Under the pieces are notes generated by a model. That model ran no database searches. It was not told where the DNA came from and was given only the letters and a program-made list of their open reading frames with translations. Shown in pieces: positions 24,538-44,161 of a DNA stretch of 64,000 nucleotides. The position numbers and the translations under genes are program-made. The stretch covers positions 729 to 64,728 of the forward strand of contig CAZRWM010000001.1 in the NCBI GenBank assembly GCA_964603885.1, in the 5' to 3' direction. Source of the stretch: an uncultured bacterium (GTDB taxonomy: Bacteria; Muiribacteriota; UBA6191). The stretch's first letter is position 1. The number at the start of each line of letters is the position of its first letter.

Positions 24538-24864
24538 ATGAAAACTGAAACACCAAAATTTAACAAAGGTCTCGTACTTCTTTGCAACCGTTGTAAAGCA
24601 CGCGTAGCTAAGCGCGATTTAGTAGGTCAAGATTTTGGTGAATTAAGGGTTAAACTCAAAGCTCAATGGAAAAAAAATAAACTATGGGGCCAAGTGAGAG
24701 CTTGTGAAACTGGTTGCTTAGGTCATTGCCCACTTGGAGCAAGTGCAATTTTTGTACAAAATCGAACGAATCTGTCTGATCATTGTTTAGCAATACCAAC
24801 TACAGCAACTGAAGAAGAAATCATAGAATCTATTGAAAGTTTTTTAGATATTGCAGTTAAATAA
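24538..24864 (+). CDS. thioredoxin-like [2Fe-2S] ferredoxin domain protein
   Basis: Cys pattern CNRC...CETGCLGHC characteristic of NuoE/thioredoxin-like 2Fe-2S ferredoxins. 108 aa. Confidence 0.55.
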   Translation: MKTETPKFNKGLVLLCNRCKARVAKRDLVGQDFGELRVKLKAQWKKNKLWGQVRACETGCLGHCPLGASAIFVQNRTNLSDHCLAIPTTATEEEIIESIESFLDIAVK

Positions 24865-27715
24865 CCAAATGCGAATTGCTCTGTTTTTATTATTGGTTAT
24901 CAACTTACAGGCTACAGCTACTATTGTTCTTGAGGCTACTCAACAAGGTTTGTTCATAAATGGGAATTTGCATCACCTTCAGATTTCTAAGGATTTTAAT
25001 AAGGTCTGTAAAACCAAATTTTTAGATGGTAGATGGGCCATAAAAGCAAAATGCCTGCAAACACTTGACACATTAAATATCAATGGTGACTTAGGTCACG
25101 GTATTAGTTTACACTTTTGGCGACAAAAAGACGATCAAGACGCAGAGTATGTTCTTGCTTATAGTAGTGATATAGCAAAATCTACCGCCTTGAAGATCTT
25201 TCGAATTATAAATCGACCGAAAGAAGCGTGGCTCCAACAGAATCTCTACTTGCCTGGACTTCTTTTCAGAGATAACCGAGCAAGTCTAACATTTAAGAAT
25301 ACCGACAAATCTATTCATCAATATCAAAAGAGTGTGACTGAACTGGACTCTCTCGGTGCATCCAATTTCATAGACCCAACACGCTTCAAATTAAAACCAT
25401 TCACATCTATCCAAAATATTCAACAGCACGGATTGTTCAGTAATAATAAACTTTGGATAAATCGTATTGTACTGTTTACGGACTCCCTTGAAAACCAAGA
25501 GAAAATTGTTACCAATTTTTTGAAAAACATCCAAAATCAGTATTTACCATTTCTACAAAAGAAAGAAAATCATTCAATCTTGATACTGATTTTATTAGCT
25601 ATCTTAGGCACCTCCCTCTGGGCTGTAACTCGCTACCTTCAAATTCAATTAATGAGCTCCCTCATCATGCCAACAACACTCATCGTGATTTTAATGACTA
25701 AGCCAATGATTGAATATTTTAACTCGCTGGAGGAAATAAGGCTTCAGAAAATCGAACAAGAAGTTAGGACAGTATTTACGAATATCAAGCAGGCACGAAA
25801 GATAGCAATGAAAAACATACATCGAAAACTTACCCAAGAAAAATATTTACTAAAACAAGCCCTAGACGCTACAAATTTCGTTAATCATCCACCCTATATT
25901 GTTACACCACAAAAGATTGATCAGTTAACCAATAAAGAATTAAAAAAAAGAATAAAAAGATTACAGAAAAAACGAATCCACAAACTCTACGACATCTCCG
26001 AAAAAGACAATTTTTTAAAAGCTCGTCTGAGTAATTGCAAACAAATGATAGAGGAATTTAGTTATGAAACTTTAAACCAACAACAATTAAGAGAATTATA
26101 TTCAAAGTTAGTTTATCAAAATTCGATAGTTCCGTTCACTTTAGCAAAGCTCGAAGTTAAAACTGGCTTAGGCCTCAAATTAAGTAATGGAAGAGTAGTA
26201 ATCGAAGCTTCGAGAATAAATTCAGGATTTCATAATCAGCGGGGTTTAGAAGGTCCACTGATGATTCAACTACTGCATAATCTTAAAAAAACGCCTGATC
26301 AAATTTCTAAGTTAAATAGGGAACACCGCCAAGCAGTTTTGTTATTTAGAAAACAATTAAGTGAATTGGAAATTAAACCACAATTTATAACTAAGTATAT
26401 GAATGAGCCACACAACTGGCATGAAATTGTTACGAGCCGAAAAACTGATACTTTTACAATGAATTCGTGGCAGCTTATTGATGCTAGAAATGGCCCTTGG
26501 GTTCTGCTCATGAATCTTAATTTAAGCTCTTTAACCCGAGAGATGGCAGCATTGATAAAAGATAACCAACTCAACAAGTTAGTATCCAAAAATAAAATTT
26601 CCAAAACTACACTTGATTATTTCAATTCCAATCAAAGACCAGAACCCTCCTTCGAATATTTATTCCTTGGAGAGAAAAATCGCGAAACTTTTCCTATACA
26701 TAAGGAGAATTCCTACTTAAGTCGAGCTGCAAATCTATCTAAAATCTACCAAACACCCGTATTTCTACCATCAATAATTAACAATCGTAGCTATGTTGCG
26801 ATGGGTTTTCCTTTACCTGATAATCCAGCGTATGTAATCTCTATTGGACGTGAAGTTACGAACGACTGGATTTTTCTCCGAGACTTAAAGACAAGAATTC
26901 AGTGGCTAATTCTTTTCCTTATTCTATCGCCTCTTCTTTTGGCAGCTAAAATTGCAGGGAAAATTACAGAGCCACTGAGACAATTGGGAAAAGCGGTTTT
27001 TGAAATTGCTAAGGGACGCTACTCAACTCAACTAAAACTTTCTGGTCTGGATGAATTTTCCAGACTTGCTAGCGAGTTCAACCGAATGTCTGTTTCATTA
27101 CAGAAAGGCGAAGAGCTAACATCATTTATTTCAAATGAATCATTACAGAATATATTACAGAAAAAAAACGTCAGTAATCGTGAGGAAGTAAGCATACTAT
27201 TTTGTGGCCTTCACAATTTCGATGACTATCATAAAATCGATTCCGATTCGGCTCGTCAATTCTTTGAAAAATTTATTATAAACTGTCAAATCCATATACA
27301 GGCCAATGGTGGAAGTGTTGATAAGTTTACCGGTATCGCTATTCTAGCTATCTTTAGAAATCAAAACAAAGAGATACGAGCTGTTTCAGCAGCACAAAAA
27401 ATTAAATTCACTCTAGAAAAAATTAATAAAACTTCAATAATTCCATTTCATGTTGGCATTGGACTAGCGACAGGCCCTGTCATATTAGGACAGGTAGGTG
27501 CTAATAAACGAAAAGATTTCACATGTATCGGTAATACTGTAAATCTAGCAGCCCGTCTTGAGTCTTTATCGCTTAAATCTCATGCAGAGATTACTATTTA
27601 TCTTGACTATGAAACATTATCAAAAGTTCCCGAAGATGAAGTATCTACCCAGGAACTTCAACCTACCAAAATTAAAGGCAAACAAGAACTTCAGAAGGTC
27701 TATGAGCTGGTATAA
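24851..27715 (+). CDS. membrane sensor adenylate/guanylate cyclase (large periplasmic domain, TM, HAMP, class III cyclase domain)
   Basis: Signal/TM at the N-terminus, a ~650-aa extracytoplasmic region and a second TM. HAMP (ITEPLRQLGKAVFEIAKGRYST...LASEFNRMSVSL). CYCc domain (FTGIAILAIF...GIGLATGPVILGQVG...IGNTVNLAARLESL). Confidence 0.8.
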   Translation: MQLNNQMRIALFLLLVINLQATATIVLEATQQGLFINGNLHHLQISKDFNKVCKTKFLDGRWAIKAKCLQTLDTLNINGDLGHGISLHFWRQKDDQDAEYVLAYSSDIAKSTALKIFRIINRPKEAWLQQNLYLPGLLFRDNRASLTFKNTDKSIHQYQKSVTELDSLGASNFIDPTRFKLKPFTSIQNIQQHGLFSNNKLWINRIVLFTDSLENQEKIVTNFLKNIQNQYLPFLQKKENHSILILILLAILGTSLWAVTRYLQIQLMSSLIMPTTLIVILMTKPMIEYFNSLEEIRLQKIEQEVRTVFTNIKQARKIAMKNIHRKLTQEKYLLKQALDATNFVNHPPYIVTPQKIDQLTNKELKKRIKRLQKKRIHKLYDISEKDNFLKARLSNCKQMIEEFSYETLNQQQLRELYSKLVYQNSIVPFTLAKLEVKTGLGLKLSNGRVVIEASRINSGFHNQRGLEGPLMIQLLHNLKKTPDQISKLNREHRQAVLLFRKQLSELEIKPQFITKYMNEPHNWHEIVTSRKTDTFTMNSWQLIDARNGPWVLLMNLNLSSLTREMAALIKDNQLNKLVSKNKISKTTLDYFNSNQRPEPSFEYLFLGEKNRETFPIHKENSYLSRAANLSKIYQTPVFLPSIINNRSYVAMGFPLPDNPAYVISIGREVTNDWIFLRDLKTRIQWLILFLILSPLLLAAKIAGKITEPLRQLGKAVFEIAKGRYSTQLKLSGLDEFSRLASEFNRMSVSLQKGEELTSFISNESLQNILQKKNVSNREEVSILFCGLHNFDDYHKIDSDSARQFFEKFIINCQIHIQANGGSVDKFTGIAILAIFRNQNKEIRAVSAAQKIKFTLEKINKTSIIPFHVGIGLATGPVILGQVGANKRKDFTCIGNTVNLAARLESLSLKSHAEITIYLDYETLSKVPEDEVSTQELQPTKIKGKQELQKVYELV

Positions 27716-30059
27716 ATATAAAAATTTTGAATGGCTTAACTTATTATTATTAAGCGTTGTTGTTAGCTTACTTGTGATTGCTTTTTTCAGAAATTCTGAA
27801 ACTCAAATCGAGTCTGTAACGATTACATCTGAATCGAAACAGTCAACTCCATCTAATCAAGCAGAATATGAAAATCGTCTGAAGAAAAAAATGGAAGAAA
27901 TTATTGATAGACTGAATTCCAAGGTTCCTGCCAAAAGTTTAGATTACACCTTTGATAGTTCCGCTTACTGGGTTATAGCTCGCAAAGGTAAAATCATGCA
28001 CCAATCTGGCAAAAAACCAAATCTTAGATTAACTACTGGTTGGCAAAAACATTTCATGCTAGGTGCATACCTGGGTAGAACAAATCCCGAGGTTTTCGAA
28101 TCAAAATGTCTGAGATTATTACAACAACCAATTAGCTTCGAAGAATTTGCAAATCAACAACTTCAATTACATTCAATCCAGATTGGATTTAACAATATAG
28201 CTTACTGCTATCTTGAGAAAAATAGCCTTTCTATCCTAGTGATATTGAGTCCAAATCCATTAAGCCAAGAGAGTTACAAGCTTAAAAAGCTACCTTTATC
28301 TAACCCCACTGTAGACTTTAGCTTTCAAGCACTTTTGATAAGTCTACTAATTTTTGCTCTATTAGTGGTTCTTCAAAAAACATTTTTAGGCTTTTGGATT
28401 CGTCGAAAGTTTTCTCGACAATACGCTTTATTTTATTTTTCGCTACTTAGTTTGCTAGCAAGTTTTCTCATCATACAAATATTTTCTATTGTCAGGGTTA
28501 AAGAATTTTATGCTAAACAAAACATGCAGGCCAAATTCCGGCTACATTTAGCCAAAATAGATGCTCAATATTTAGTATTTAAGAAAAGCCTCGAAGAACA
28601 TCTGGTAAGTACAATCCTGGATGATAAAAATGAAGAGGACGCTGACTTAATAAAACTCCTTGACATTGATGCGTGTCATATCAGTAGGGAAGGACTTTTC
28701 TTTCCCAAGGGCAAAGCCACTACTCGACTTTCTAAACTATTCTGTAAATTATTTGGACTCGAGATTTACAAAAAACAGTTTCCACAAGATTCTTCATATT
28801 TTCAGAAAATAAAATCAAAGATGGAAAGTCAATATAATCTGAATAAATTTGATGATTTAAGCTGGAATTACAAGAGGGCTTCGAAGCATTTAGAGGAATT
28901 TAAGTCAGATCAACTTATAAATTGGAGTTTAGGCAAATTTAATAAGGAAATACTGTGGACCAAAAACAATGGTGTACCTGCACCAAAACTAGCAATCGGT
29001 ATGCTATCCAATAAAAATATTCAGAACTACTATTTTGAATTCTCCAAACGCGATTTACCCCAAAACTGGAAACTAATTAAGAAAGATAATCACTTTACTC
29101 AGACTAAGGGCCATATTAATATCTTGTTAGCTAGTAACGTTTTTGACTTTGATGTCATCTACTCGGTATCAGAAAGCTCTGTATTCAAAGAAGTTCGTGA
29201 ATTTGAATTCACTATCTATCTATTGATAGCACTATCTTTTGTTCTGGCGATTCCCTCTTGGTATTTCATGAGCAACGCTATGACAAAACCAATTCAGAAA
29301 ATTTTTATTGGACTCGCTAACGTACGACAACGTAAATGGCAAAAACTCGATATAATTTCCCGTAATGAATTCGGCCAAGTTATGAAAGGCTTCAATCACA
29401 TGGTTGATCGTCTGAGAGAAAAGTCGGAACTATCGAGTTTTGTTGCAGAACAGATTTTGGATTTACTATCAAATGAGAGAGGAGAATTGAATAATCAAAT
29501 TGAAGATAATGCAGCTGTTCTTTTTTGCGATATCCGTTCATTCACAAGTATTTCCGAGTCCCATGATCCCGAGAAAGTCGTAGATATGCTCAATAGTTAC
29601 TTTGAAATGTGGCAATTAGTGGTACAAAAAAGAGGAGGAGTTATCGAGCGTTTTATTGGTGACGCGATAGTGGTGATTTTTTTCGAGAGATTTAGTAAAC
29701 AGTATGCTCAGGATGCAGTACAGTGTGCTATGGATATCATGTCACAGATGTCATCATTTAACAAAAAATGTTTTCAGACAAATGATTTTACAATAAAAAA
29801 TGGAATTGGAATCTCACAAGGTAAGATACGTTTTTCTGTAATTGGAGATAAAATTAAGAAGCATCTATTTGCTTCAGGAGAAGCGGTTATCAGAGCCGAG
29901 CACTTAGAATACCTTAGTAAGCAAGGTAATATTTCAATGATTATGGTAGATCAATATATTTATCAAACCACTCAGTATCAATTTGACTATCAAAAGCTCG
30001 AAAACAACGCACTTGATACTACTGTGTATGAGTTAAAATTAGATCGAGTGATAGACTAG
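27702..30059 (+). CDS. membrane sensor adenylate/guanylate cyclase, second paralog (TM, HAMP, class III cyclase domain)
   Basis: Start refined to Met at 27702 (MSWYKYKNF...), overlapping the upstream stop by 14 nt; the ORF track begins at 27558 inside the previous gene. HAMP (PIQKIFIGLANVRQRKWQ...FNHMVDRL). Cyclase motifs (VLFCDIRSFTSIS, ERFIGDAIVV). Confidence 0.8.
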   Translation: MSWYKYKNFEWLNLLLLSVVVSLLVIAFFRNSETQIESVTITSESKQSTPSNQAEYENRLKKKMEEIIDRLNSKVPAKSLDYTFDSSAYWVIARKGKIMHQSGKKPNLRLTTGWQKHFMLGAYLGRTNPEVFESKCLRLLQQPISFEEFANQQLQLHSIQIGFNNIAYCYLEKNSLSILVILSPNPLSQESYKLKKLPLSNPTVDFSFQALLISLLIFALLVVLQKTFLGFWIRRKFSRQYALFYFSLLSLLASFLIIQIFSIVRVKEFYAKQNMQAKFRLHLAKIDAQYLVFKKSLEEHLVSTILDDKNEEDADLIKLLDIDACHISREGLFFPKGKATTRLSKLFCKLFGLEIYKKQFPQDSSYFQKIKSKMESQYNLNKFDDLSWNYKRASKHLEEFKSDQLINWSLGKFNKEILWTKNNGVPAPKLAIGMLSNKNIQNYYFEFSKRDLPQNWKLIKKDNHFTQTKGHINILLASNVFDFDVIYSVSESSVFKEVREFEFTIYLLIALSFVLAIPSWYFMSNAMTKPIQKIFIGLANVRQRKWQKLDIISRNEFGQVMKGFNHMVDRLREKSELSSFVAEQILDLLSNERGELNNQIEDNAAVLFCDIRSFTSISESHDPEKVVDMLNSYFEMWQLVVQKRGGVIERFIGDAIVVIFFERFSKQYAQDAVQCAMDIMSQMSSFNKKCFQTNDFTIKNGIGISQGKIRFSVIGDKIKKHLFASGEAVIRAEHLEYLSKQGNISMIMVDQYIYQTTQYQFDYQKLENNALDTTVYELKLDRVID

Positions 30060-30340
30060 TTTTGATTCTTGTATAGAAATCCGTTCAAAGCTATAAAAGT
30101 ATCCTCCACCAATGACTTTTCTCTCCAATAACCATTTTTGGTTTCAGTGATGCCATTATCCTGCTTTAGAAATCCATTCAGTTTTCTATCCATCGTTTTA
30201 CGATCGTAACTTAGAAGAAGATTTTGGGGGTCCTCCTGACATCTTAGCTCTCGGAGTAATTTAGCATTAGATTTCAGTAGATTTAATAATTCTCTTCGTT
30301 TCGACCTAGACTCATTTGATGCTTGCTTCGATTTTTCCAT
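30056..30340 (-). CDS. small basic hypothetical protein
   Basis: 94-aa ORF overlapping the upstream ORF by 58 nt in another frame. Possibly real, possibly the product of a frameshift. Confidence 0.25.
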   Translation of the reverse strand: MEKSKQASNESRSKRRELLNLLKSNAKLLRELRCQEDPQNLLLSYDRKTMDRKLNGFLKQDNGITETKNGYWREKSLVEDTFIALNGFLYKNQN

Positions 30341-30807
30341 AAAGGTTTTACTGCGACTGGTACTTGAGTGAATTCAATAATTTCGTTCCCCGAATCATCG
30401 GCAATTACATTGCGACTCCTGAGAGCCTCAAGACCCGAAACTTTTGTAGCAGGTTGATTTTTTATCCTGACATAAAAACTTATTCGATATCTACTATCAC
30501 AAGAAAAATCACTAAGAGTCATTAGATAATCGGAAGCTTCCTTGGTGCCGTTTACGGTAACTAGTTCAGTCGAGTCGCAGGGATTTATCAAAAGAGCAGC
30601 ATTAAATTTCAGTCTACTTTTTTGTTTAATACCACTTGTATATGTCCTTAACCCGAGATAAGTTTCCTTGAAGTCGAGATTTTTCACAGTATTTAATTCA
30701 GGTAATCTATTACCCAATCCGACTTTTAAGGCCATAGTGTTTTGAGTGCAAAGATGAAAACTGAATATGCATACACACATTAAAAGTAAACGACTCAGGA
30801 AATACAT
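30283..30807 (-). CDS. secreted/lipoprotein-like hypothetical protein
   Basis: N-terminal signal peptide with Cys (MYFLSRLLLMCVCIFSFHLC). 174 aa. Confidence 0.45.
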   Translation of the reverse strand: MYFLSRLLLMCVCIFSFHLCTQNTMALKVGLGNRLPELNTVKNLDFKETYLGLRTYTSGIKQKSRLKFNAALLINPCDSTELVTVNGTKEASDYLMTLSDFSCDSRYRISFYVRIKNQPATKVSGLEALRSRNVIADDSGNEIIEFTQVPVAVKPLWKNRSKHQMSLGRNEENY

Positions 30808-30916
30808 TTTGTTAAATTAGACTAAAGCTCGGTAAATATTAAATAATCGGGTTACTATTTAAGTCGAACAAAATGGCTTTTAGTATAATATTTGATGAGT
30901 TTTTATGAGTGAACAT

Positions 30917-31558
30917 CTAAGGGATTAGAACTGCCCGCACGGGACTAGCATCCGCATCGACTAAAGGTAATGGTAAAGCAATCAAATTATAAACACCTGG
31001 ATCAACCTGATCTAGAATAATACCTTCAAGAATAGCTAAATCGTGTTCACTGACAGCTTTATGAGCAGGAAGACTTTTGCTATCAGAGGAATCAATACTT
31101 GGGGTATCGATTCCTAATAAAATTCCACCTCGATGAGCGAAGTTCGTTACTAGTTGGGGACAAAAAAACCAGAAATCATGATTCCAATTCTGTGAATCTG
31201 GAAAGCTACCTGTTTTGAACAAAATCCTTGGTGCAGGTAACTCCTCGGGCAAGTAATCCATCCCAATTTTACCATCCTCACATCGTGCTACTTCAATAAC
31301 TGCACATGAACCTATATATAGATTTAGACTCCTCGAATAGATACCAGAACCATCGGGAGAGTAATGATTTGGAGCATCTGTATGGGCACCTACATGGAGG
31401 GTGCTTCTGATAGAAGATAAGGTCAAATGATCGCCCTGAGCTACATCCATTGAGACATCTCTTTGAAAAGAAACATCTCCTGGAAAAACTGCTATTTTAT
31501 CGCTAATCGGCGGACTTATATCAATAATTCGTATTCCTTCCCAACTATTTTCAGACAT
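30917..31558 (-). CDS. kynB: kynurenine formamidase (cyclase-family arylformamidase)
   Basis: Cyclase-family motif HVGAHTDAPNHY (HxGTHxDxPxH). Start placed at the second Met (minus-strand ATG at 31558..31556), 4 nt after the upstream stop, rather than the overlapping 31588 start. Confidence 0.75.
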   Translation of the reverse strand: MSENSWEGIRIIDISPPISDKIAVFPGDVSFQRDVSMDVAQGDHLTLSSIRSTLHVGAHTDAPNHYSPDGSGIYSRSLNLYIGSCAVIEVARCEDGKIGMDYLPEELPAPRILFKTGSFPDSQNWNHDFWFFCPQLVTNFAHRGGILLGIDTPSIDSSDSKSLPAHKAVSEHDLAILEGIILDQVDPGVYNLIALPLPLVDADASPVRAVLIP

Positions 31559-31562
31559 TGTC

Positions 31563-32888
31563 TTATCCTTTTTCTGGTTTACGCGCAACTACTTTGAATT
31601 CTACATGAATAGGAGTCGGTAGAGCCTCTATACCAACCGTGGTTCTAGTAGGTCCATCTTGTGGAAAATACTCCCCGTAAATCTCATTAAATTTCTTGAA
31701 ATCGGCCTCCATATCTGTGAGAAAAACTTGAACATCAACAACATCGCTTAAATTACATCCCGAAGCCTCAAGTACTGCTTTGATATTTCGGAAGACCCCA
31801 TGAGTCTCAGCACTTATGTCATAAGATAAAACATTACCTTTCGAATCCATTCTTAAACCAGGAATATTATCAGTCCCCCTTTCTCTTGGACCTATACCCG
31901 AAAGAAAAATAAAATCGCCTTCCTCTCTCGCATGAGGGTACGGTCCTACGGGCAATGCAGCCTCATGACTTTCAATCACGGTAGTACTTTCAATCACGGT
32001 AGTACTTTCAACTTTCCCCTGATCAGCGCCAAGAGGCTGATTCCAGAGTTTTCTTAAATCCGCATTGGGATACAAACCCACCAAAGCTGCGCCCGTTCCC
32101 CATACAGGTTGGTATTCAAAAACTTGACCACTGAACTCATTAGATTCCAGACCTATTGAATTCAACCACCATATTCCTTTGAATTGCATATCTCCATTGG
32201 CCTCTCGAGCAAATTCACGAGCACACTGAGCCACATCCTCAAGACGACCCTCAGCTAATAATTCCAAGATCTTCAAATTCCATTCATTATCCTTTTTACT
32301 TGATACATAATCCTCCGGAGGATTGATATCGTGAGTGAAATAACGATTTGACAAGTTACTTATGAGTATTACCACCACTCTTTTATCATATTTTTTGAGT
32401 GCCCTAAGCGTACTAGCTCCAATCGCCATGGTCTCCTGTTTCTCAGCATACATATTGCAACTGAGCATACTTGCAGCATAACGATTTTCCGGATTAATTA
32501 GCTTCTGAGCAACTACAGTGCCTGTGTCAATGGGAAAACCCTCATAATTAACTAGCATTGTGTGCCTACCGGTTTTTTTTACTTCTGCGGCATGAATTGG
32601 TGCAAAAACCTCATCTACCTTGAACTTGTATGGCATAGTTCCCAGATCATGCCAATTAGAATCTACATGAACCCATTCCGGTGAGGGATCTGACTGAAAA
32701 AGCCAACCTAAAACGGATAGCCATTGTGTTGACATGTAAAGAATCATATCGGGTTCGAGTTGGTTAATTTCCTCACGAACGCAAGCATATCCTTCATTTA
32801 ACTTCTGCCAAGCAGGACTCTCACTCGGAGTGAGTAAAATATGGGGCTGTCCGGCTAGTAAATACATTGCAGGAATTTCAAAACTCAT
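31563..32888 (-). CDS. fusion protein: LigB-type extradiol dioxygenase non-catalytic alpha-like subunit (AmnA-like) + RidA/YjgF-family deaminase (AmnD-like)
   Basis: N-terminal ~300 aa has the class III extradiol dioxygenase fold but lacks the His ligand motif. C-terminal ~125 aa carries RidA hallmarks (LPVGPYPHA...FLSGIGP...HGVFRNIKAVLEASGCNLSDVVDVQVFLTDM...RTTVGIEALPTPIHVEFKVVA). Linker contains VES-TTVIES-TTVIES. Confidence 0.7.
   Translation of the reverse strand: MSFEIPAMYLLAGQPHILLTPSESPAWQKLNEGYACVREEINQLEPDMILYMSTQWLSVLGWLFQSDPSPEWVHVDSNWHDLGTMPYKFKVDEVFAPIHAAEVKKTGRHTMLVNYEGFPIDTGTVVAQKLINPENRYAASMLSCNMYAEKQETMAIGASTLRALKKYDKRVVVILISNLSNRYFTHDINPPEDYVSSKKDNEWNLKILELLAEGRLEDVAQCAREFAREANGDMQFKGIWWLNSIGLESNEFSGQVFEYQPVWGTGAALVGLYPNADLRKLWNQPLGADQGKVESTTVIESTTVIESHEAALPVGPYPHAREEGDFIFLSGIGPRERGTDNIPGLRMDSKGNVLSYDISAETHGVFRNIKAVLEASGCNLSDVVDVQVFLTDMEADFKKFNEIYGEYFPQDGPTRTTVGIEALPTPIHVEFKVVARKPEKG
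31970..32015. repeat. 18-bp direct tandem repeat (~2.4 copies) encoding TTVIES linker repeat
   Basis: tttcaatcacggtagtac repeated twice in tandem, followed by a partial third copy, inside the CDS 31563..32888. Confidence 0.85.
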
Positions 32889-33820
32889 AGATCCTCCCCC
32901 CTGCTAATTGCATCCCATTCGACTACTGCGTTACCCGTACCAATGACTGAGCCGTAAGAGTGAACCTCTGCAGGGTAATCTGGCACATCCATTGCATGTA
33001 GCATCCAAGCCAAAGCTCCTGCTTTGACCTCAGCAACAGCCATGTCAAAAAATTCTGGTAGAATGTCGAGTAGTTGCTGGCATTCACCCCTCTTCATTAA
33101 GTCTAAAACTTGCATATCCCATAAGTACTGTCCATGATGATAAATATGCTCTTTGCTCATATCTTCAGGGATGTCTGCTTCCCATGTAAAGTGTCGATGG
33201 GAGAGCGAATTACTCGCCAGTAGCCAGGCCTTTTTACCGGAATCAACTATCGCTTGGGCTGTAGCTCTACCTAATTTAGCCATTTCTTTCTGACCCACCT
33301 CGTTAGAAAAGTAATATGGTGAATTGTTTGAAGAAATACAAACTATGGGAATATCCCAGTCGGGATTAACCATATGAAGCGAAATAATTGTCCCGTAATC
33401 GATTCTAAAATTAGGATTTTGCATTACTTTCATGGTTAATCCCTGTTTTTCACCTCCCGTCTTTATTGCCATTGATAGTTCAACATCTACCTCTAAATCA
33501 TATTTATAACGAAATAGATGCGGAAAAATGGGATCAACCGATAATCCATGAAATTCTGGTAGACCCAACACATGGTGCCCAACTACAGTCTGCCAGTGTG
33601 GGGAATGTACCAACAGTACATCAGGCGGATCTTTTTTTAATTTTTTACGAACATTATCATAACCCCATCGAATAACCTCCCAGCCACCTTCACTTCTGGG
33701 TTCATTACGCTCCGGATTTTCCGCATACACAAGGTGAGGTGGATGAGGAGCAAGAATTCCCTTAGTTATAACACCTTTAGTAACTGTCATGCTAACTCCT
33801 AAATCATCAAATAAGTGCAA
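32885..33820 (-). CDS. LigB-type (class III) extradiol ring-cleavage dioxygenase catalytic beta subunit (2-aminophenol 1,6-dioxygenase AmnB-like)
   Basis: 311 aa. N-terminal LAPHPPHL His-Pro metal-ligand motif typical of the LigB family, plus SPHW and a C-terminal His. ATGA overlap with the downstream alpha-like gene. Confidence 0.75.
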   Translation of the reverse strand: MHLFDDLGVSMTVTKGVITKGILAPHPPHLVYAENPERNEPRSEGGWEVIRWGYDNVRKKLKKDPPDVLLVHSPHWQTVVGHHVLGLPEFHGLSVDPIFPHLFRYKYDLEVDVELSMAIKTGGEKQGLTMKVMQNPNFRIDYGTIISLHMVNPDWDIPIVCISSNNSPYYFSNEVGQKEMAKLGRATAQAIVDSGKKAWLLASNSLSHRHFTWEADIPEDMSKEHIYHHGQYLWDMQVLDLMKRGECQQLLDILPEFFDMAVAEVKAGALAWMLHAMDVPDYPAEVHSYGSVIGTGNAVVEWDAISRGEDL

Positions 33821-35255
33821 TGCAAACGTTTTTAGATTCAGTATAGAAATCTATCGAATAATGCCCGCCCTCGCGACCTACTCCGCTAGCTTTATAACCT
33901 CCAAATGGAGTTTTAAGATCTCTCTTAAGCCAGGTATTGACCCAGATTATACCTGCCTTTAAACCTGCTGCAAAACGATGGGTTCTCGTAGAATCTTTCG
34001 TCCAAATAGTTGCTGATAAACCATACGGAGTATCATTGGCCAGTTTGAGCGCCTCTTGCTCACTGCTGAAAGACTGTAATGTTACAACAGGACCAAAAAT
34101 TTCTTGCTGAATTACATCACAGTCTTGGGATAGTCCTTCTATCACTGTTGGCAGAATAAAATAACCCTTGCTCAGTCCATCCTCTAACAAAGGGATCTCT
34201 CCGCCACAAAGAACCGTACCACCCAACTGTCTCGCACTATCAATATATGACAAAACTTTATCTCTGTGCGAGGCGCTTATCAGCGCACCCAGATCACTAT
34301 TTTCACAAAAAGGATCTCCAGTTATGAGTGATTTTACTTTAGCAACAAATGCTTGTTTGAATTGATCATAGATACTTTCTTGAATTAGTATTCGAGATCC
34401 ACAAAGACATATTTCGCCTTGATTAGTAAATGCTGACCGCACACTTTCTTCAACTGCCAAATCAAAATCGGCGTCAGCGAAAATCACATTTGGATTCTTA
34501 CCGCCCAACTCCAAAGAAAGTTTTTTAAAGTAAGGCGCAGCTTGCCGTTGAATATCTACAGCTGTCTGGGTGCCCCCGGTAAAAGAAATCAGTGGTATAT
34601 CAGGGTGAGCTGAAATTGCACGTCCTACCTGATGGCCCAGTCCATGAACTAAGTTTACTACCCCTGGTGGTAAATCAATCTCAGAAAATATCTCACATAG
34701 GGCATTAGCCGTAGCAGGAGTTAATTCACTGCATTTAGCCACACAGGTATTACCACAGGCAATAGCCGGAGCTATTTTCCAGGTCAGAAGATAAAGTGGT
34801 AAATTCCAAGGACTAATCAAACCGGCAACCCCTATGGGTTCTCTCAATGAATAATTAATCGCTTGACCATCCATTGTACTTGCCTGCTCCAGATGATGAG
34901 AAATTGCTCCCGCAAAAAATCTAAAATTGCTGGCAGCCCTTGGGATATCTATTTTTAATGCAAGATTTAGTGGTTTACCCTGATCAGTAGATTCTAATTC
35001 AGCAAGATATTGGGCTTTATTTTCGATGGCCTCAGCAATTCTATTTAAGAAATTGATTCGAGAGGCTAGTGGCAATTTCGACCATGAATAAAAAGCCTTA
35101 TTAGCCGCCTGAACAGCTGTATTTACATCGACAACCGAAGATGAAACCACCCTAGCATAAACCTTTCCCGTGGAAGGCTGATATACATTCATTTGATCAC
35201 CACTAGCTGCATCGATGAACTGACCATTTATATAATTTTTAAAAATCACCAACAC
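33807..35255 (-). CDS. NAD-dependent aldehyde dehydrogenase (2-aminomuconic/2-hydroxymuconic semialdehyde dehydrogenase-like)
   Basis: ALDH motifs LELGGKNP, catalytic Cys region GQ(V/I)C...(EICLCGSRIL), GxxxxG NAD site. 482 aa. Sits between LigB dioxygenase genes, as amnC does. Confidence 0.85.
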   Translation of the reverse strand: MLVIFKNYINGQFIDAASGDQMNVYQPSTGKVYARVVSSSVVDVNTAVQAANKAFYSWSKLPLASRINFLNRIAEAIENKAQYLAELESTDQGKPLNLALKIDIPRAASNFRFFAGAISHHLEQASTMDGQAINYSLREPIGVAGLISPWNLPLYLLTWKIAPAIACGNTCVAKCSELTPATANALCEIFSEIDLPPGVVNLVHGLGHQVGRAISAHPDIPLISFTGGTQTAVDIQRQAAPYFKKLSLELGGKNPNVIFADADFDLAVEESVRSAFTNQGEICLCGSRILIQESIYDQFKQAFVAKVKSLITGDPFCENSDLGALISASHRDKVLSYIDSARQLGGTVLCGGEIPLLEDGLSKGYFILPTVIEGLSQDCDVIQQEIFGPVVTLQSFSSEQEALKLANDTPYGLSATIWTKDSTRTHRFAAGLKAGIIWVNTWLKRDLKTPFGGYKASGVGREGGHYSIDFYTESKNVCIALI

Positions 35256-36286
35256 TACTCCAGATATTTCTCAGGGTCAAATTCCCAACGATCACGATCC
35301 ACATCCCAGCTATCCCAGGCTTGAATAGACGATATTTTATGACGTAATTTTGGTGGTATTACATCATTGACAATGAATCCCTTCTGACGATCTAATGCAT
35401 AAGGATTGCGAAGTTCAAAATCTAATACACCCAGTATCCATCTTGCGACAAACCAAGTCGCTGTGTTGTCCCAGCCATGTGCAATTTTAACAACGACCCC
35501 TAAACCCTCTGGATAATCTTCATGCTTAATGGCCAGTCCAAGGAGCCCATCAGCGCCCTCTTTGGCGATAATTCTCCCATCACAACTCTTCATTATGGTG
35601 CTATCTAGACGATTGAATCCACCAACTAAGTCAGGGTTACGCACCATAGACTCCCATATCCAGTCCTCATCTTTTCGGGTAACCAATGAAGCATACATAG
35701 TTGCTAACTCATTTACACTCATACTTAAAGTTGGTAAACCGCAACCATCCTTCGCAATCACACTAGGTTTCCATTCAGTACCTAATAATTTTTGTACCTC
35801 TTTAATATATTCTTGAGTAAACTGATGATGAGGCCATGTATAACCTACTCGGGACCAGCCTTTAAGTTGACAACCTCTTAAAATAGCAGCATGCTCACCC
35901 GAGCAAGTATGATACCAGCGCCTTGGTCGACGGCGCTGCTTACCGAATTGAATCATGGGAAGTGCATGAGGAGTCTGCATTAATCCTAATTCTGACTCTT
36001 TAAGAATAGATTTAACCGTCCGTACATGCTCTGTATCCCCATTATGGCTGGAGACAGAAATCGCCTTTTGGTCCCAGTTAAGAATATTATCCAAATCCCT
36101 ACTAAATACCCTCATCATAACTGGTTTCATCATGCTACGACCATAGCAAACAACATTTCCTCCCCAACTGTAGATTAAACGCTTACCAGTAACCCATGCT
36201 ACTGCGCCATGTATGGTGCATTCGGCGACACCATTTCGCCGATACTCGACTAGGGGAACCCAAGCATTGCTAATATCTGTGCTCAC
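35255..36286 (-). CDS. asparaginase II (PF06089-like) family protein
   Basis: Blocks SSHNGDTEHV and KDGCGLPTLSMSVNELATMYA resemble the L-asparaginase II (AnsA-like) family. Function in this operon unknown. Confidence 0.5.
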   Translation of the reverse strand: MSTDISNAWVPLVEYRRNGVAECTIHGAVAWVTGKRLIYSWGGNVVCYGRSMMKPVMMRVFSRDLDNILNWDQKAISVSSHNGDTEHVRTVKSILKESELGLMQTPHALPMIQFGKQRRRPRRWYHTCSGEHAAILRGCQLKGWSRVGYTWPHHQFTQEYIKEVQKLLGTEWKPSVIAKDGCGLPTLSMSVNELATMYASLVTRKDEDWIWESMVRNPDLVGGFNRLDSTIMKSCDGRIIAKEGADGLLGLAIKHEDYPEGLGVVVKIAHGWDNTATWFVARWILGVLDFELRNPYALDRQKGFIVNDVIPPKLRHKISSIQAWDSWDVDRDRWEFDPEKYLE

Positions 36287-36301
36287 AGCTTGCCTCCATT
36301 C

Positions 36302-37513
36302 TCAAAAGTGAGGGGCTACTTTTTCCATAAATAGTCGCATACATTGCATAACTTCATTACTGTTATGATTGTTGAAATCAAACCAAAGAAGTAATTTATC
36401 TTGAGGATTGAATCGCTGCCTTATTTGATCTACAACATCCTCAGGCGTTCCGACGAGAGCATTGTCGGTGGCGTTGGCTACCTTAGCAGGGTCAAGAGTA
36501 CCCTCGATAGCTTTCCAGTAATTTTCATTCGCGTTGACTGCAGCCTTCTTTGCTCGGTCACGTCTTTCATCGATTCCCACACCCTGATCATCATTCAAAA
36601 AGCATAGTACTGTCCGAGGCATATATTCACGTTTCCAAGGGCCGCCCAAGGAATGATAAATTTTGCTCATCTTGGCGTGAGTTTCCTCAATCTGCTTTGT
36701 AGGTGTTATAGATAAATTAAAAACAGACACCGGTAGTATCTCATTTGCTAGCGCATGAACTTCGGGGTCCGCGGAGCCAACTGTCAATCTTAGTTTTTCA
36801 ATAGGTGCCTCAAATGGTATCACCCCAACAGGATCAAAATCATAAAATGAAGGAATTATGACATGATCTACTGACTCACCGACGGCCTGCTCAACTGCTT
36901 CCCAATCTTCTTTATTCCTGAAATCCGTAGGTCTTATATAACCACGCTGACGAATGTCATCTGAACCGATAACCTCACCTTTCAGTAGACGGCAAAAAAT
37001 TTCAGTAGCCTCCTGAAAAACCCGGCCTTTCAAGACAGGCCAAAGAGCTTTTTCGACAGGATTACGAGGCCGAATTCCGTAAGGCGTATTACTAAAAGGA
37101 AAACGACCCGATGCAAAACCGATATTAAGTCCTCGAGAATCTTTCGCATCCATGCGATGGATGGTTAGAAAAGTACGAATCGCTTCAGCATGAGCCAATG
37201 GGCCACCATTACACAAAATATTTCTAATCGCCGAACCCACTTCAATGTTTCTAGTTCGAGCATAAAGCCAATGGGCCATCTGTAAAATATCAGTATTTAA
37301 TCCAATCTCTCCCTGAAAATGAGGAACTACGGCTCCTGGATTTTTTTTCTGAATCTGACAGGATAGATGCGTCTCTGCAATCCAGCCAATCCCAAATCCC
37401 AGCTTATCAGCGAGCAAAAATTGCTCAAGAAAATTCTTGAACATGGTTTGCTCGTCTGGAGTGTGTCCATCCACCGGGGTTTGACAAATTGCAAAGAAGA
37501 TATCAAATTTCAT
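36302..37513 (-). CDS. LLM-class (luciferase-like) flavin-dependent monooxygenase/oxidoreductase
   Basis: N-terminal MKFDIFF...GWIAETHL pattern and TIM-barrel LLM features. 403 aa. Confidence 0.65.
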   Translation of the reverse strand: MKFDIFFAICQTPVDGHTPDEQTMFKNFLEQFLLADKLGFGIGWIAETHLSCQIQKKNPGAVVPHFQGEIGLNTDILQMAHWLYARTRNIEVGSAIRNILCNGGPLAHAEAIRTFLTIHRMDAKDSRGLNIGFASGRFPFSNTPYGIRPRNPVEKALWPVLKGRVFQEATEIFCRLLKGEVIGSDDIRQRGYIRPTDFRNKEDWEAVEQAVGESVDHVIIPSFYDFDPVGVIPFEAPIEKLRLTVGSADPEVHALANEILPVSVFNLSITPTKQIEETHAKMSKIYHSLGGPWKREYMPRTVLCFLNDDQGVGIDERRDRAKKAAVNANENYWKAIEGTLDPAKVANATDNALVGTPEDVVDQIRQRFNPQDKLLLWFDFNNHNSNEVMQCMRLFMEKVAPHF

Positions 37514-38295
37514 AGACTAGGCGTCCTTCCTCCGTCGACCGGTAAATTTATCCCAGTAATATAGGCCGCACCGGGACTCGCTAGAAAAGTAACTGCATTT
37601 GCTACTTCTTCTGCTTCCGCAAAACGACCCAACGGTACTTTATCTTTCCAAGTCTCTATAATTTTATTTTCACTTATGCCCTGTCTTGAGCTAGCGGATT
37701 TAATGAGCTCTTGTAAGCGCTCTGTATTGGTGTAGCCAGGTAATACGTTATTCACTGTAATACCGTATTGGCCTAGCTCATTAGATAATGATTTAGACCA
37801 ACTAGCCACCGCCCCCCGAATTGTATTGCTCACCCCAAGATTAGGTATAGGAGCTTTCACAGAAGTAGAAATAATCTGAATGATTCGCCCGTACTGAGTA
37901 GTTTTCATACCTTCTAAACATAAGTTCACCAGCAATTGAGAAGCTAAGACATGATTTTGGAGCCCTTCAACAAATATTCTTTCGCTAGCCTCCAATAGTG
38001 GACCTGCCTTTGGCCCCCCTGAATTATTTATTAGAATATTTACAGGTCTACGATCTACCAAGCCCGACACAGCTTTTGTTAAGGAATCTGGATCACCTAG
38101 GTCTACTGCTAAAACCTCATGATTACTCCCGGGGAGCTCCTTTATTAAGCTTTCCATAGCATCGTAATTTCTAGCTAGTAGTACAACCGAACAACCTAAC
38201 TCGGCGAGAGACTTCGCACAAGCTGCTCCGATGCCCCGACTAGCACCACAAACAATAGCCCTTTTACCACTCAAAGATTGTACTACTCCTGGCAT
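37510..38295 (-). CDS. SDR-family oxidoreductase
   Basis: Gly-rich NAD(P) motif GASRGIGAA, NNSG, catalytic YxxxK-type region. Confidence 0.85.
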   Translation of the reverse strand: MPGVVQSLSGKRAIVCGASRGIGAACAKSLAELGCSVVLLARNYDAMESLIKELPGSNHEVLAVDLGDPDSLTKAVSGLVDRRPVNILINNSGGPKAGPLLEASERIFVEGLQNHVLASQLLVNLCLEGMKTTQYGRIIQIISTSVKAPIPNLGVSNTIRGAVASWSKSLSNELGQYGITVNNVLPGYTNTERLQELIKSASSRQGISENKIIETWKDKVPLGRFAEAEEVANAVTFLASPGAAYITGINLPVDGGRTPSL

Positions 38296-39138
38296 TTATC
38301 CCCCATAATTCCCACTACCAATATGATTACGAACTTCCCAGATCTCAGGAAAATATTTGAGATGCGAACGAGATTGAAGAAACTTATAACCAGCACTGCC
38401 ACCGGTACCTTTTTTGTGACCTATTGTGCGTTCTACCATTAACATATGCGTCGATCTAAAAAGAGAAAATTTCTCGTCAAAATCCATCATCGCTTCGAAT
38501 AGAAGGCACAAATGATAGTCATCACCTGGATCAGTGTAGATTCCCCTCAAGACTTCAATTAAATCGGGATTCATAACATGATTTTGTGTATAGTCTCGAG
38601 TTACGCATTCCACAGGTATTGAATACCCAAGTAGCTTTAAACTATTCCAAAATTCATCGTAAATCGATGGTAATCTACTAATTTCTTCAAGTTTTTGAGC
38701 TACTTCAGGTTTAGACTCAAAAAACTTGAGAAAAAACGCATCACGCACCCCAAATTTAAATTCTATCTCACGAAATTGAACTGATTGAAAACCACTCGCT
38801 GGATTAAGACTATCCCGAAAACCGGCGAATTCTACCGGTGTAAGCGTTGATAAAAGATTAATTTGCTTGACCATTAAATCCATAATTGCCGTAATGCGCT
38901 TAAAACCCTTTAATGCTCTGCTTACAGAGGGCTTTTGAAAAGCTTCAATCACCTTATCTGATTCATGCAGAATATTCTTAAACCATAGCTCAGAAGCCTG
39001 ATGAATAATGATAAAAAACATTTCATCATGATGCTGGGGCTCAGAAATTAAATCCTGCAATTCTAGCAATTGGGGAATTTTTAAGTATGAGTTGTAATTA
39101 AGTTTCTCTAACACCAAAGAATCGTATTTTATAGTCAT
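38296..39138 (-). CDS. kynA: tryptophan 2,3-dioxygenase
   Basis: YNSYLKIPQLLELQ...HDEMFFIIIHQASELWFK matches the bacterial TDO signature (YxxYLxLDxLLxxQ...SDEHLFIITHQAYELWFKQ). 280 aa. Confidence 0.8.
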   Translation of the reverse strand: MTIKYDSLVLEKLNYNSYLKIPQLLELQDLISEPQHHDEMFFIIIHQASELWFKNILHESDKVIEAFQKPSVSRALKGFKRITAIMDLMVKQINLLSTLTPVEFAGFRDSLNPASGFQSVQFREIEFKFGVRDAFFLKFFESKPEVAQKLEEISRLPSIYDEFWNSLKLLGYSIPVECVTRDYTQNHVMNPDLIEVLRGIYTDPGDDYHLCLLFEAMMDFDEKFSLFRSTHMLMVERTIGHKKGTGGSAGYKFLQSRSHLKYFPEIWEVRNHIGSGNYGG

Positions 39139-39183
39139 AGTGGACTAAATATAGCACAGCGAAATTCCTCTGAATGGGATATT

Positions 39184-40020
39184 ATGAATAATATGAGTCC
39201 CGATTCCCAATGCTTACGATCTGTATCAGCGCTACGATTATCAAAATCAAACTTTGCCAAATCACTTAGAACTGAATCTATTGCGGAAGAACAGCCTTTG
39301 CACATTACGATTAAGCATCACGGGTCATTAGGCTTAACACTTTGCAGTCCTGGAAATTTAGATGATCTGGTAGTTGGGTTTTTGTTTACGGGAGGTTTTA
39401 TTGAGCAACTCGATGACATTTTGGAAATTGAGTGGATTGACAATAATCACTGCGAAGTTTCACTAAAATATTTACCAACCCTACCGGGAATCTCAGCCAA
39501 TAGTATTTCTCACAGTGCATGCGGAATTTGTCGCTTCGATGAATTAGAACATCTACCCTCACGTCAAACTTATTGGAGCGAACAACCGATTCCCAAACAC
39601 AAATTTTTCGAATGGTTCAAAGAACTTCAGCTCAGTCAACCGCAATTCATTCAAAGTGGGGGACTCCATGCTTCCGCACTATTTTCACCTGTTAACGGGC
39701 TTATTAAAGTTAGAGAGGACATAGGTAGGCATAACAGCATGGATAAACTTATCGGATCTGTCTTAAAAGAACAAAAATTTGATCGTCTATCTCATACCGT
39801 ACTACTACTGAGCGGTCGCGCAGGATTTGAGCTGCTTCAGAAGGCTGCTAGATCAGGAATAGCTATAGTCGCGGCGATTGGAGCCCCATCGTCTCTTGCT
39901 CTTGATATGGCTCGTAAATTTGGCATTACTCTTTTGGGATTCTTGAAATCGGAACGATTTAACATCTACTGCCATGCCAGTCGAATTGAGGGAATAGAAG
40001 ATGAAATTAAGGATACATAA
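39184..40020 (+). CDS. fdhD: formate dehydrogenase accessory sulfurtransferase FdhD
   Basis: Conserved SACGICR Cys motif and C-terminal GRAGFEL...AIGAPSSLA region. Confidence 0.85.
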   Translation: MNNMSPDSQCLRSVSALRLSKSNFAKSLRTESIAEEQPLHITIKHHGSLGLTLCSPGNLDDLVVGFLFTGGFIEQLDDILEIEWIDNNHCEVSLKYLPTLPGISANSISHSACGICRFDELEHLPSRQTYWSEQPIPKHKFFEWFKELQLSQPQFIQSGGLHASALFSPVNGLIKVREDIGRHNSMDKLIGSVLKEQKFDRLSHTVLLLSGRAGFELLQKAARSGIAIVAAIGAPSSLALDMARKFGITLLGFLKSERFNIYCHASRIEGIEDEIKDT

Positions 40021-40366
40021 AAATAGTATTCGCTTAAGACTTGATCGCAATGATTTTTATGAATTGAGTGATAGAAACGTACTAATTCAGTCATTGGAGA
40101 CATCGACTTACAAATGGAATTTTAGCATTTTGCTTGCTGAGGTCTTTAAAGTCGAGTTGAGTAATGAGGGCTTTAAATTTTTCATTCCTCATTCTGATTT
40201 TGATAACTTAAAAAGTACAAAATTAGAATATTTGAAATATATTGTAGATAATCTGAAGATCAGCATTGAAAAGGAATATTCTTGCTTGCATCCGTCCGAG
40301 CTGAAGACTCAAAAAAAGTCTGATTCTGCATTTTTTCCCAGACCTACGGAAGAGAGTAACCAATGA
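40001..40366 (+). CDS. small hypothetical protein between fdhD and molybdoenzyme gene
   Basis: 121-aa ORF overlapping both neighbours' ends (20 nt and 4 nt). No known motif. Confidence 0.35.
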   Translation: MKLRIHKNSIRLRLDRNDFYELSDRNVLIQSLETSTYKWNFSILLAEVFKVELSNEGFKFFIPHSDFDNLKSTKLEYLKYIVDNLKISIEKEYSCLHPSELKTQKKSDSAFFPRPTEESNQ

Positions 40367-42711: not shown

Positions 42712-43129
42712 TCCTAAAAATTTTAAAGCACAATCTAACAGAGTCTCTTAAAAGTTCAGCTATGGTTTATTTTGTGCTAGCCGAACATAGTCCCATATTT
42801 GCAGGTGTTAGAAATATGATGGTGGTGTTGAACTTTATATTTACTAAAATTTTTCAGTCGGTAGTTACCTTTTAAGGATAGGTAATCCAATGATTTTAAT
42901 CACTTTCTCGTAAAACTAAATAAAAGTTATACAGAGTATTCATCGTCGAGTATTTAGAACATTAAACCTCTGAAAATAATTATTAACTGTCTGCGCTAGA
43001 TTCTAAGTTCGTGGACTAGCACTCATATATATATATTGCTGGATCTACTTCTTCAGTATAGATACAGGACCAGCATAATGTAGTATGCCTACCATCACAT
43101 AAGGGACATGATTTCGATTTTTCACAATA

Positions 43130-44158: not shown

Positions 44159-44161
44159 TCT

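Follow-up and report, generated by a model that had tools for sequence, protein, structure and literature searches.

A conserved fusion of a 2-aminophenol dioxygenase-like alpha subunit with a predicted 2-aminomuconate deaminase in uncultured bacteria

We analysed a 64,000-nucleotide stretch of DNA, here called the window, from an uncultured bacterium of the Muiribacteriota (lineage UBA6191; assembly GCA_964603885.1, contig CAZRWM010000001.1, positions 729 to 64,728 of the forward strand), with attention to a minus-strand gene at 31563..32888 that encodes 441 amino acid (AA) residues plus a stop codon from an ATG start. This gene joins a domain resembling AmnA, the non-catalytic alpha subunit of 2-aminophenol 1,6-dioxygenase, through a linker to a RidA-family domain resembling the 2-aminomuconate deaminases AmnD and AmnE. 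The explanation that best accounts for the data, and that we regard as probable, is an ancient fusion of the dioxygenase alpha subunit with a 2-aminomuconate deaminase across a disordered linker, in which a recent repeat would be neutral. The protein would thus unite two known enzymes of one pathway, a helper subunit of the ring-cleaving enzyme and a deaminase acting two steps later.

A preliminary description of the window had read a single 441 AA open reading frame (ORF) with a LigB-like and a RidA domain at this position, and both the ORF listing and Pfam agreed with it: LigB (PF02900) was found at residues 21-269 with 57.3 bits (cutoff 26.3) and Ribonuc_L-PSP (PF01042) at residues 311-436 with 91.1 bits (cutoff 27.3). 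That description was also right that AmnA and AmnD are separate proteins in characterised amn clusters (amnRJBACDFEHG; PMC3790839). Its implication that the fusion is peculiar to this genome did not hold up. When a collection of 5.8 billion proteins was searched and the best 120 matches were taken, all 120 carried both Pfam domains, with lengths of 420-557 AA and 48-87% identity to the window protein. In a scan of one genome per species, 547 stretches encoded a relative, and from these 80 loci were kept, all of them from metagenome-assembled genomes (MAGs) and with 10-kb flanks; every one of the 80 matched the query in a single frame over approximately residues 5-435. The loci span Bdellovibrionales, Bacteriovoracia, Oligoflexus, Thermoanaerobaculia and other Acidobacteriota, Planctomycetota, Latescibacterota, and Krumholzibacteriota. 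We found no description of the AmnA-deaminase architecture in the searchable literature, which includes few subscription journals and in which the main survey of Rid-family fusions was covered, and the conserved fusion appears to be present in databases under automatic names only and to be undescribed in that literature.

The sequence relationships among the relatives also bear on the age of the fusion. When the N-terminal domain alone was used in an exhaustive search, the nearest 50%-identity clusters were fused proteins, and free-standing alpha subunits began at 42% identity or below. The RidA domains of the fused proteins were 51-61% identical among themselves and 40-45% identical to AmnE, values that fit an ancient and widespread fusion with a single origin. 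A crude neighbour-joining tree of the N-terminal domains was not fully monophyletic, with the proteins P0127 and P0125 placed apart from the main fused clade. Independent fusion origins are nevertheless not claimed, since the RidA domains of these two proteins are as close to the other fused ones as those are to each other. P0125 itself is probably a truncated fused form, as its tail retains the RidA start PVGAYPHARRAGDLIFLSG. Other arrangements of the AmnA-like domain were seen as well: in P0139, P0143, and P0146 an AmnA-like non-catalytic LigB domain stands behind a branched-chain amino-acid ATP-binding cassette (ABC) permease domain, with an additional alpha/beta-hydrolase domain after the two in P0143, and in P0124 and P0140 the AmnA-like domain is followed by a non-RidA tail of about 60 AA.

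The N-terminal domain (residues 1-282; 32043..32888, minus strand) was most similar to alpha subunits of 2-aminophenol-type 1,6-dioxygenases. The best phmmer matches among solved structures were the alpha chains 7txy_A (5e-52), 3vsg_A (3e-42), and 8ihg_B (4e-36), at 29-33% identity to solved alpha subunits, whereas matches to the solved beta subunits were weaker (2e-23 to 1e-12). The same preference was seen in Foldseek comparisons of the structural model, in which the target-normalised TM-score (TMt) was 0.92-0.93 with a root-mean-square deviation (rmsd) of 1.7 Å for alpha chains as against 0.82-0.85 for beta chains, in a part of the model where the predicted local distance difference test (pLDDT) score was mostly above 90. 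At the positions of the beta subunit that we take to be the iron ligands (H13, H62, and E251) and the catalytic histidine (H195), in 3vsg_B (CnbCb) numbering and in agreement with LigB homology, the domain has G, Q, N, and D in the order H13, H62, H195, E251, a pattern that recurs in 3vsg_A, 7txy_A, and four other fused relatives.

All four of these residues are kept in the product of the gene immediately upstream (32885..33820, minus strand), an amnB-like catalytic beta subunit with phmmer matches of 1.4e-116 to 3vsg_B and 2e-114 to 8ihg_A. The TGA stop codon of this gene overlaps the ATG of the fusion (ATGA), an arrangement that typically couples the translation of both genes. In about 70 of the 80 related loci, a proper AmnB (61-74% identity) is encoded upstream of the fusion at a distance of 0.9-1.4 kb. 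Judged from the sequence and the model, the N-terminal domain is a putative AmnA/CnbCa-type alpha subunit that has lost the iron ligands, and its predicted iron-binding partner is encoded just upstream. The likeness to AmnA/AmnB (CnbCa/CnbCb; PDB 3VSG-3VSJ, 8IHG, 7TXY) is that two homologous subunits of the LigB fold are paired and that iron is confined to beta. The differences are that the window alpha subunit bears a C-terminal linker and a RidA domain, with no solved chain spanning both, and that the genes are ordered C-B-A-D with A and D in one gene, unlike the characterised order B-A-C-D, in which amnC stands between amnA and amnD (amnRJBACDFEHG).

For the C-terminal domain (residues 303-441, 139 residues; 31566..31982, minus strand), the best match in the PDB was AmnE of Pseudomonas sp. 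AP-3 (6izh), a 2-aminomuconate deaminase, with 1e-23 by sequence and a Foldseek TMt of 0.90, an rmsd of 2.0 Å, and 38% identity by structure. The two align with one-residue gaps only across the long Lp2 loop, whereas ordinary RidA proteins (2dyy, 2csl) need a gap of 11-12 residues there. R415 and K432 do not vary among 53 fused relatives, and the residues aligned with them in AmnE are R117 (in GPARTTV) and K135 (in IEIKVVA), the cleft arginine, equivalent to R105 of RidA, and the cleft lysine of that enzyme (PMC6742747). Compared with RidA profile thresholds, the domain passes Pfam PF01042 and falls below the narrower NCBIfam model TIGR00004 (93.2 bits; cutoff 106.25), and on the basis of the latter score we did not adopt a housekeeping RidA as its identity. 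The sub-cutoff score fits a specialised deaminase, because generic RIDA is inactive on 2-aminomuconate while dedicated deaminases are active (bioRxiv 10.64898/2026.06.05.730449). Based on sequence and modelling, the domain is predicted to be a specialised RidA-family 2-aminomuconate deaminase of the AmnD/AmnE/NbaF type. Its top match in sequence and fold is thus with the known 2-aminomuconate deaminases (AmnE, 6IZH, called AmnD in other strains; NbaF; the Burkholderia and fungal AMD), at 38-40% identity, and it shares with them the extended Lp2 loop, the arginine and lysine conserved in the cleft between subunits, and an encoding alongside amnB and amnC homologues. The known enzymes are separate polypeptides of about 140 AA and assemble into trimers or hexamers, whereas the window domain is tethered covalently to a dioxygenase alpha subunit.

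In the mechanism that we favour, the alpha-beta enzyme would open the ring of o-aminophenol to give 2-aminomuconic semialdehyde, the AmnC-like dehydrogenase of the same operon would oxidise the semialdehyde to 2-aminomuconate, and the tethered RidA domains, associated as trimers that form the active sites, would hydrolyse 2-aminomuconate to 4-oxalocrotonate (2-oxohex-3-enedioate) and ammonia. The fusion would fix alpha, beta, and deaminase at 1:1:1 and co-localise them, and we consider fixed stoichiometry with co-localisation a more defensible benefit than channelling. Channelling of an unstable 2-aminomuconate-type intermediate had been put forward in the preliminary description and now looks weak. 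Direct channelling from the dioxygenase would not be expected, because a separate dehydrogenase acts between it and the deaminase; in addition, the decay of 2-aminomuconate is slow (half-life about 160 min at pH 7.6; bioRxiv 10.64898/2026.06.05.730449), and it is the semialdehyde that turns spontaneously into picolinate and is lost (PMC3790839; PMC10470539).

These same stabilities would also suit a different reaction order, in which the tethered RidA domain would deaminate the enamine or imine of the semialdehyde to 2-hydroxymuconic semialdehyde before oxidation, with the dehydrogenase then taking the hydroxy compound. It is the only order in which the fusion would give true channelling, and it would prevent cyclisation to picolinate; proximity to the dioxygenase should matter more for the labile semialdehyde than for the longer-lived 2-aminomuconate. 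The two compounds bear the same 2-amino-2-enoate head group that, on chemical grounds, RidA would recognise. The dehydrogenase (33807..35255, minus strand; Pfam Aldedh) can be read either way, since its best NCBIfam model is the 2-hydroxymuconic semialdehyde dehydrogenase TIGR03216 (552 bits, below the cutoff), but its nearest solved relatives, 7bzv (1.5e-138) and 4i1w/4npi (1e-134), are 2-aminomuconate semialdehyde dehydrogenases. Likewise, the nearest characterised relatives of the C-terminal domain are 2-aminomuconate deaminases, and we know of no RidA-family enzyme that acts on the semialdehyde. On balance we think this order rather unlikely.

The benefit of the fusion might instead be architectural, such that a RidA trimer or hexamer mounted on a two-fold alpha2beta2 dioxygenase drives the formation of a large closed or lattice complex that concentrates the pathway enzymes. 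Cages can be obtained by fusing a dimeric to a trimeric module, as is known from protein design. RidA active sites lie between trimer subunits, and in AmnE two trimers make up a hexamer (PMC6742747); in the dioxygenase, two alpha-beta heterodimers associate via the beta subunits (PMC10470539). The actinobacterial enzyme 7TXY, the closest solved relative of the N-terminal domain, is thought to be encapsulated in a microcompartment, and some members of the fused family have very short linkers. The idea is purely inferential, however, and the wide range of linker lengths (33-122 AA) speaks against a precise geometry. We consider it quite improbable as the reason for the fusion, although it is compatible with, and does not exclude, a deaminase fused for stoichiometry and co-localisation.

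Several points weigh against the fused ring-cleavage and deamination enzyme that we favour. We infer both the activity and the assembly of the fused family, as well as o-aminophenol as the ring substrate. A trimer-forming domain on an alpha2beta2 subunit creates a symmetry mismatch, which the shortest linkers, estimated at about 7-8 free residues, may fail to accommodate without a higher-order assembly. The C-terminal domain scores below the TIGR00004 cutoff, as given above. Five of the related loci (L050, L056, L060, L064, and L065) have no beta subunit within 10 kb of the fusion. Finally, none of the Pfam families of the lower meta-cleavage pathway (4-oxalocrotonate decarboxylase, 2-keto-4-pentenoate hydratase, aldolase, and acetaldehyde dehydrogenase) was seen among the 45 ORFs of the window that were scanned, a set that excludes a few short ORFs, nor do these families occur among those recurrent in the 80 loci.

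That the ORF is an artefact, with two genes mis-joined at the repeat by an assembly error or frameshift or with the repeat itself mis-assembled, deserves almost no credence: assemblers can collapse or expand tandem repeats and the protein search gave no match of 100% identity to the window protein, but all 120 protein matches and all 80 genome loci keep the fused frame, the closest relatives share it with one repeat unit fewer, the 44-bp array should be shorter than a typical sequencing read, and a single-chain AlphaFold2 model (53 relatives as input) folded both domains confidently with a mean pLDDT of 90.5. The artefact was rejected on the conserved frame and on an identical copy of the gene in a separate assembly. 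This copy is on the Tara Oceans scaffold L081 (ERZ2782958, sample SAMEA2622843), where all 1326 of 1326 bases of the fusion gene are the same, repeat included; over 26302..47513 of the window the scaffold shows 4 differences in 21,212 bases (99.98% identity), all of them elsewhere than in the gene. We looked for a stop codon or frameshift between the domains and there was none, in keeping with the retention of the fused frame in many genomes. The fusion is confirmed as a genuine single gene, and an assembly error is unlikely. The Tara match also identifies the source of the window as a marine, uncultured, low-GC (~38%) bacterium. Other assemblies hold shorter contigs that are near-identical to the window.

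Between the two domains lies a flexible linker (approximately residues 283-302; 31983..32042, minus strand), which has low confidence in the AlphaFold2 model and is hypervariable in the alignment. Mean pLDDT was 75 for residues 281-290 and 46 for residues 291-300, with values below 50 at residues 294-299. Among 117 relatives, the span from the GTG motif at the end of the alpha core to the VGxYPH motif at the start of the RidA core was 33-122 AA long (median 53), and the linkers were rich in A, S, E, P, K, and T. In the long linkers of P0011, P0042, P0051, P0069, P0075, P0093, P0096, P0111, and others, a common motif, PDWVNDEADLVER, was found right after the alpha domain, which suggests a functional element, for example a docking helix, inside an otherwise variable tether.

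The linker of the window protein overlaps an 18-bp tandem repeat (31968..32011, minus strand), for which Tandem Repeats Finder (TRF) reported 2.4 copies with 100% matches, no indels, and a score of 88. It was the sole true tandem repeat found by TRF across the 64-kb window, the only other entry being an A-rich low-complexity stretch, and by our own arithmetic chance alone would produce a perfect 26-base tandem recurrence about 1e-11 times per 64 kb. The two full units, both in frame, are at 31989..32006 (residues 295-300) and 31971..31988 (residues 301-306), and each is AGTACTACCGTGATTGAA, encoding STTVIE. An 18-bp unit repeated about 2.4 times had been noted beforehand and was recovered by TRF, although its earlier coordinates (31970..32015) were off by a few bases and the unit given then, tttcaatcacggtagtac, is a cyclic permutation of the TRF consensus. 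The first copy falls on the segment of low pLDDT, and the second supplies the beta strand with which the RidA domain begins (residues 303-305).

When the DNA was aligned with that of the two nearest relatives, L001 (87% protein identity) and L002 (83%), the window had exactly one 18-bp insertion, so that both orthologous loci carry one unit fewer; correspondingly, the GTG-to-VGxYPH span is 47 AA in the window protein and 40-41 AA in the closest relatives. The absence of mismatches between the copies indicates that the duplication is recent. It is lineage-specific and in frame, adding six residues and copying the first RidA strand into the linker; for function, a neutral effect is most likely. 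The preliminary description had taken it for a recent slipped-strand duplication that created or extended the linker; recent and lengthening it is, but the repeat was rejected as the origin of either the linker or the fusion, since relatives without the extra unit are already fused. Loci more distant than these two have unrelated linkers, some with repeats of their own. Tandem arrays at the DNA level were present within the linker in 7 of the 80 loci, and the linkers of P0100, P0109, and P0091 have their own repeats at the peptide level, such as QSTAQSTAQSTA and RQSSRQSS. The occurrence of such repeats in several family members suggests slippage as a recurrent route of linker length change, and from these sequences the linker length is seen to drift apparently freely across the family, in part via small tandem duplications. 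The importance of the 18-bp repeat is limited to showing how linker length evolves.

The fusion is the seventh of eight tightly packed or overlapping minus-strand genes (30917..39138) that we regard as one operon. The upper amn functions (amnB, amnA, amnC, and amnD) all lie within 31563..35255, with A and D as one gene. The first operon gene (38296..39138) encodes a tryptophan 2,3-dioxygenase (TDO, kynA; Pfam Trp_dioxygenase, 195 bits, above its cutoff), for which TIGR03036 was the best model with 264 bits, below the equivalog cutoff of 390.7, and for which the public gene call on L081 begins at 39117 (273 AA). It is followed by a short-chain dehydrogenase/reductase (SDR) gene (37510..38295; Pfam adh_short_C2) and by the gene for a divergent luciferase-like flavin monooxygenase (LLM) at 36302..37513 (Pfam Bac_luciferase, 42 bits). 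No relative of the LLM protein was found by sequence in the PDB. Its AlphaFold2 model (mean pLDDT 87.6) is a confident flavin mononucleotide (FMN) LLM barrel, and it has 3480 homologs, with about 60% identity across phyla; the Foldseek neighbours (RslO1, luciferases, MsnO8, and a type II Baeyer-Villiger monooxygenase) are all generic FMN LLM proteins and diagnose no function.

The fourth gene (35255..36286) encodes a serine hydrolase of the asparaginase-II-like family (AsnII-like; PF06089, 173.9 bits) that matched the Rhizobium-type asparaginases 8cly and 7os3 at 4e-17 and keeps the S-x-x-K, SHNG, DGC, and K-x-G-A-x-G motifs. A Lys-to-Glu substitution in this protein was considered as a distinctive active-site change and rejected, since the orthologues are mixed (23 E, 15 K). 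The AmnC, AmnB, and fusion genes come next, and the last gene, kynB (30917..31558), encodes a kynurenine (aryl)formamidase (Pfam Cyclase, 42.8 bits, above its cutoff) with TIGR03035 arylformamidase as the best model (192 bits, below the equivalog cutoff of 223). Its ATG lies 4 bases past the stop codon of the fusion; the mechanically derived ORF extends to a TTG at 31588, and the gene call on L081 is 213 AA long. Downstream of kynB are two small ORFs without a Pfam family (30283..30807 and 30056..30340, both minus strand), of which the 174 AA one is conserved in the two closest relatives only (L001, 64% identity; L002, 57%).

Much of this operon is conserved with the fusion. Among the 80 loci, many of which are truncated so that the counts are lower bounds, the neighbours were AmnB in about 70, AmnC in 60, the AsnII-like hydrolase in 55 (61-94% identity), LLM in 49, KynB in 40, SDR in 24, and TDO in 3. 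Where KynB was present, it was within 3.5 kb downstream of the fusion and usually immediately after it. At L003, L014, and L031, TDO occupies the same operon position, and besides these three, about 50 loci from Bdellovibrionota, Acidobacteriota, Planctomycetota, and other groups show synteny of LLM, AsnII-like, AmnC, AmnB, the AmnA-RidA fusion, and KynB. Three MAGs had the full eight-gene order, one from Bacteriovoracia, one labelled 'Proteobacteria', and one from Acidobacteria. The five loci without a beta subunit, mostly Thermoanaerobaculia or other Acidobacteriota MAGs, have the fusion without AmnB, AmnC, LLM, or the hydrolase within 10 kb; KynB follows the fusion in most of this subgroup, and a GGDEF-EAL protein and an extracytoplasmic function (ECF) sigma/anti-sigma pair adjoin. 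Kynureninase, kynurenine 3-monooxygenase, the cupin 3-hydroxyanthranilate dioxygenase, and 2-amino-3-carboxymuconate semialdehyde (ACMS) decarboxylase were not found among the window ORFs scanned.

These associations lead us to propose, tentatively and as a possibility that we hold for less probable than its opposite, that the fusion is the signature gene of an undescribed and widespread bacterial route of tryptophan catabolism that yields 2-aminophenol, a route in which all of the chemistry is conjectural. TDO would convert tryptophan to N-formylkynurenine and KynB would convert this to kynurenine, at whose aryl ketone the LLM protein might insert oxygen in a Baeyer-Villiger reaction to give a beta-aspartyl 2-aminophenyl ester. 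The ester would readily rearrange by an acyl shift to N4-(2-hydroxyphenyl)asparagine, from which the AsnII-like serine hydrolase could release L-aspartate and 2-aminophenol, and AmnB together with the AmnA-deaminase fusion and AmnC would process the latter. The fusion, combining a dimer with a trimer, may additionally self-assemble and confine reactive intermediates in a large complex. We propose this route because the synteny of LLM, AsnII-like, AmnC, AmnB, fusion, and KynB genes is conserved across phyla, because the full eight-gene order recurs in three distant lineages, because the hydrolase motifs are kept and the LLM fold has structural neighbours of the Baeyer-Villiger type, and because no genes for the canonical middle steps of the kynurenine pathway were found among the window ORFs scanned.

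No kynurenine Baeyer-Villiger reaction or tryptophan-to-2-aminophenol route was found in the literature that we could search. The natural precursor of 2-aminophenol for amn-type pathways has been stated to be unknown (PMC10470539), and an 'unknown' tryptophan pathway has been suspected in predatory bacteria whose only known gene of the pathway is kynA (PMC4646340). If the route is real, it would name that precursor and would be a candidate for the tryptophan pathway of the predatory bacteria.

The operon can be compared with several characterised systems. With the canonical amn/cnb/nba clusters it shares the upper genes, while no lower genes were found among the 45 ORFs scanned. With the ARO microcompartment of Actinobacteria (PMC10470539), which contributes 7txy_A, the closest solved relative of the N-terminal domain, it shares AmnAB, AmnC, and a deaminase kept physically together in a natural, non-pollutant setting. 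The means differ, since no shell-protein family was found among the window ORFs scanned and co-localisation here would be by covalent fusion, and so do the accessory genes, which are HyuA/HyuB in the ARO loci and LLM, the AsnII-like hydrolase, and KynB in the window. Like bacterial kynurenine clusters (kynA, kynB, kynU, or the Burkholderia cenocepacia cluster, which passes through 3-hydroxyanthranilate to 2-aminomuconate), the window operon provides a tryptophan 2,3-dioxygenase and a kynurenine formamidase as opening enzymes and a 2-aminomuconate semialdehyde dehydrogenase and a RidA-type deaminase as closing ones. In place of the canonical middle steps, however, it has a LigB-type two-subunit dioxygenase, an LLM monooxygenase, and an AsnII-like hydrolase.

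The fusion, frequent among uncultured members of the Bdellovibrionota, Acidobacteriota, and other phyla, offers a natural test of whether a trimeric deaminase on a two-fold dioxygenase improves flux or builds a larger assembly. Its larger value may be as a marker of a conserved operon that would link TDO and KynB to 2-aminophenol ring cleavage via two uncharacterised enzymes. Such an operon bears on the source of 2-aminophenol in unpolluted environments and on the disposal of kynurenine in bacteria without kynureninase.

Other genes of the window were noted around the operon. Divergent from the TDO gene, at 39184..42711 (plus strand), are genes for FdhD, a DUF7009 protein, and a molybdopterin oxidoreductase of the FdhF/YdeP family (TIGR01701, 925 bits). 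This trio might dispose of formate from the formamidase; it is not among the gene families recurrent in the related loci. About 8 kb from the operon, at 46684..50220 (plus strand), a fused hydantoinase A/B (oxoprolinase-like) protein of 1178 AA is encoded. The actinobacterial ARO 2-aminophenol loci also hold HyuA/HyuB genes that are unexplained (PMC10470539), and the parallel may be a coincidence. Next to the operon, two adjacent genes at 24851..27715 and 27558..30059 (plus strand) each encode a large membrane protein that contains HAMP and adenylate/guanylate cyclase domains; on the Tara scaffold they are likewise two gene calls. Further along, at 51384..56145 (plus strand), lies a trio encoding a PrkA kinase, a DUF444 protein, and a SpoVR-like protein, a stress module of the YeaG-YeaH-YcgB type.

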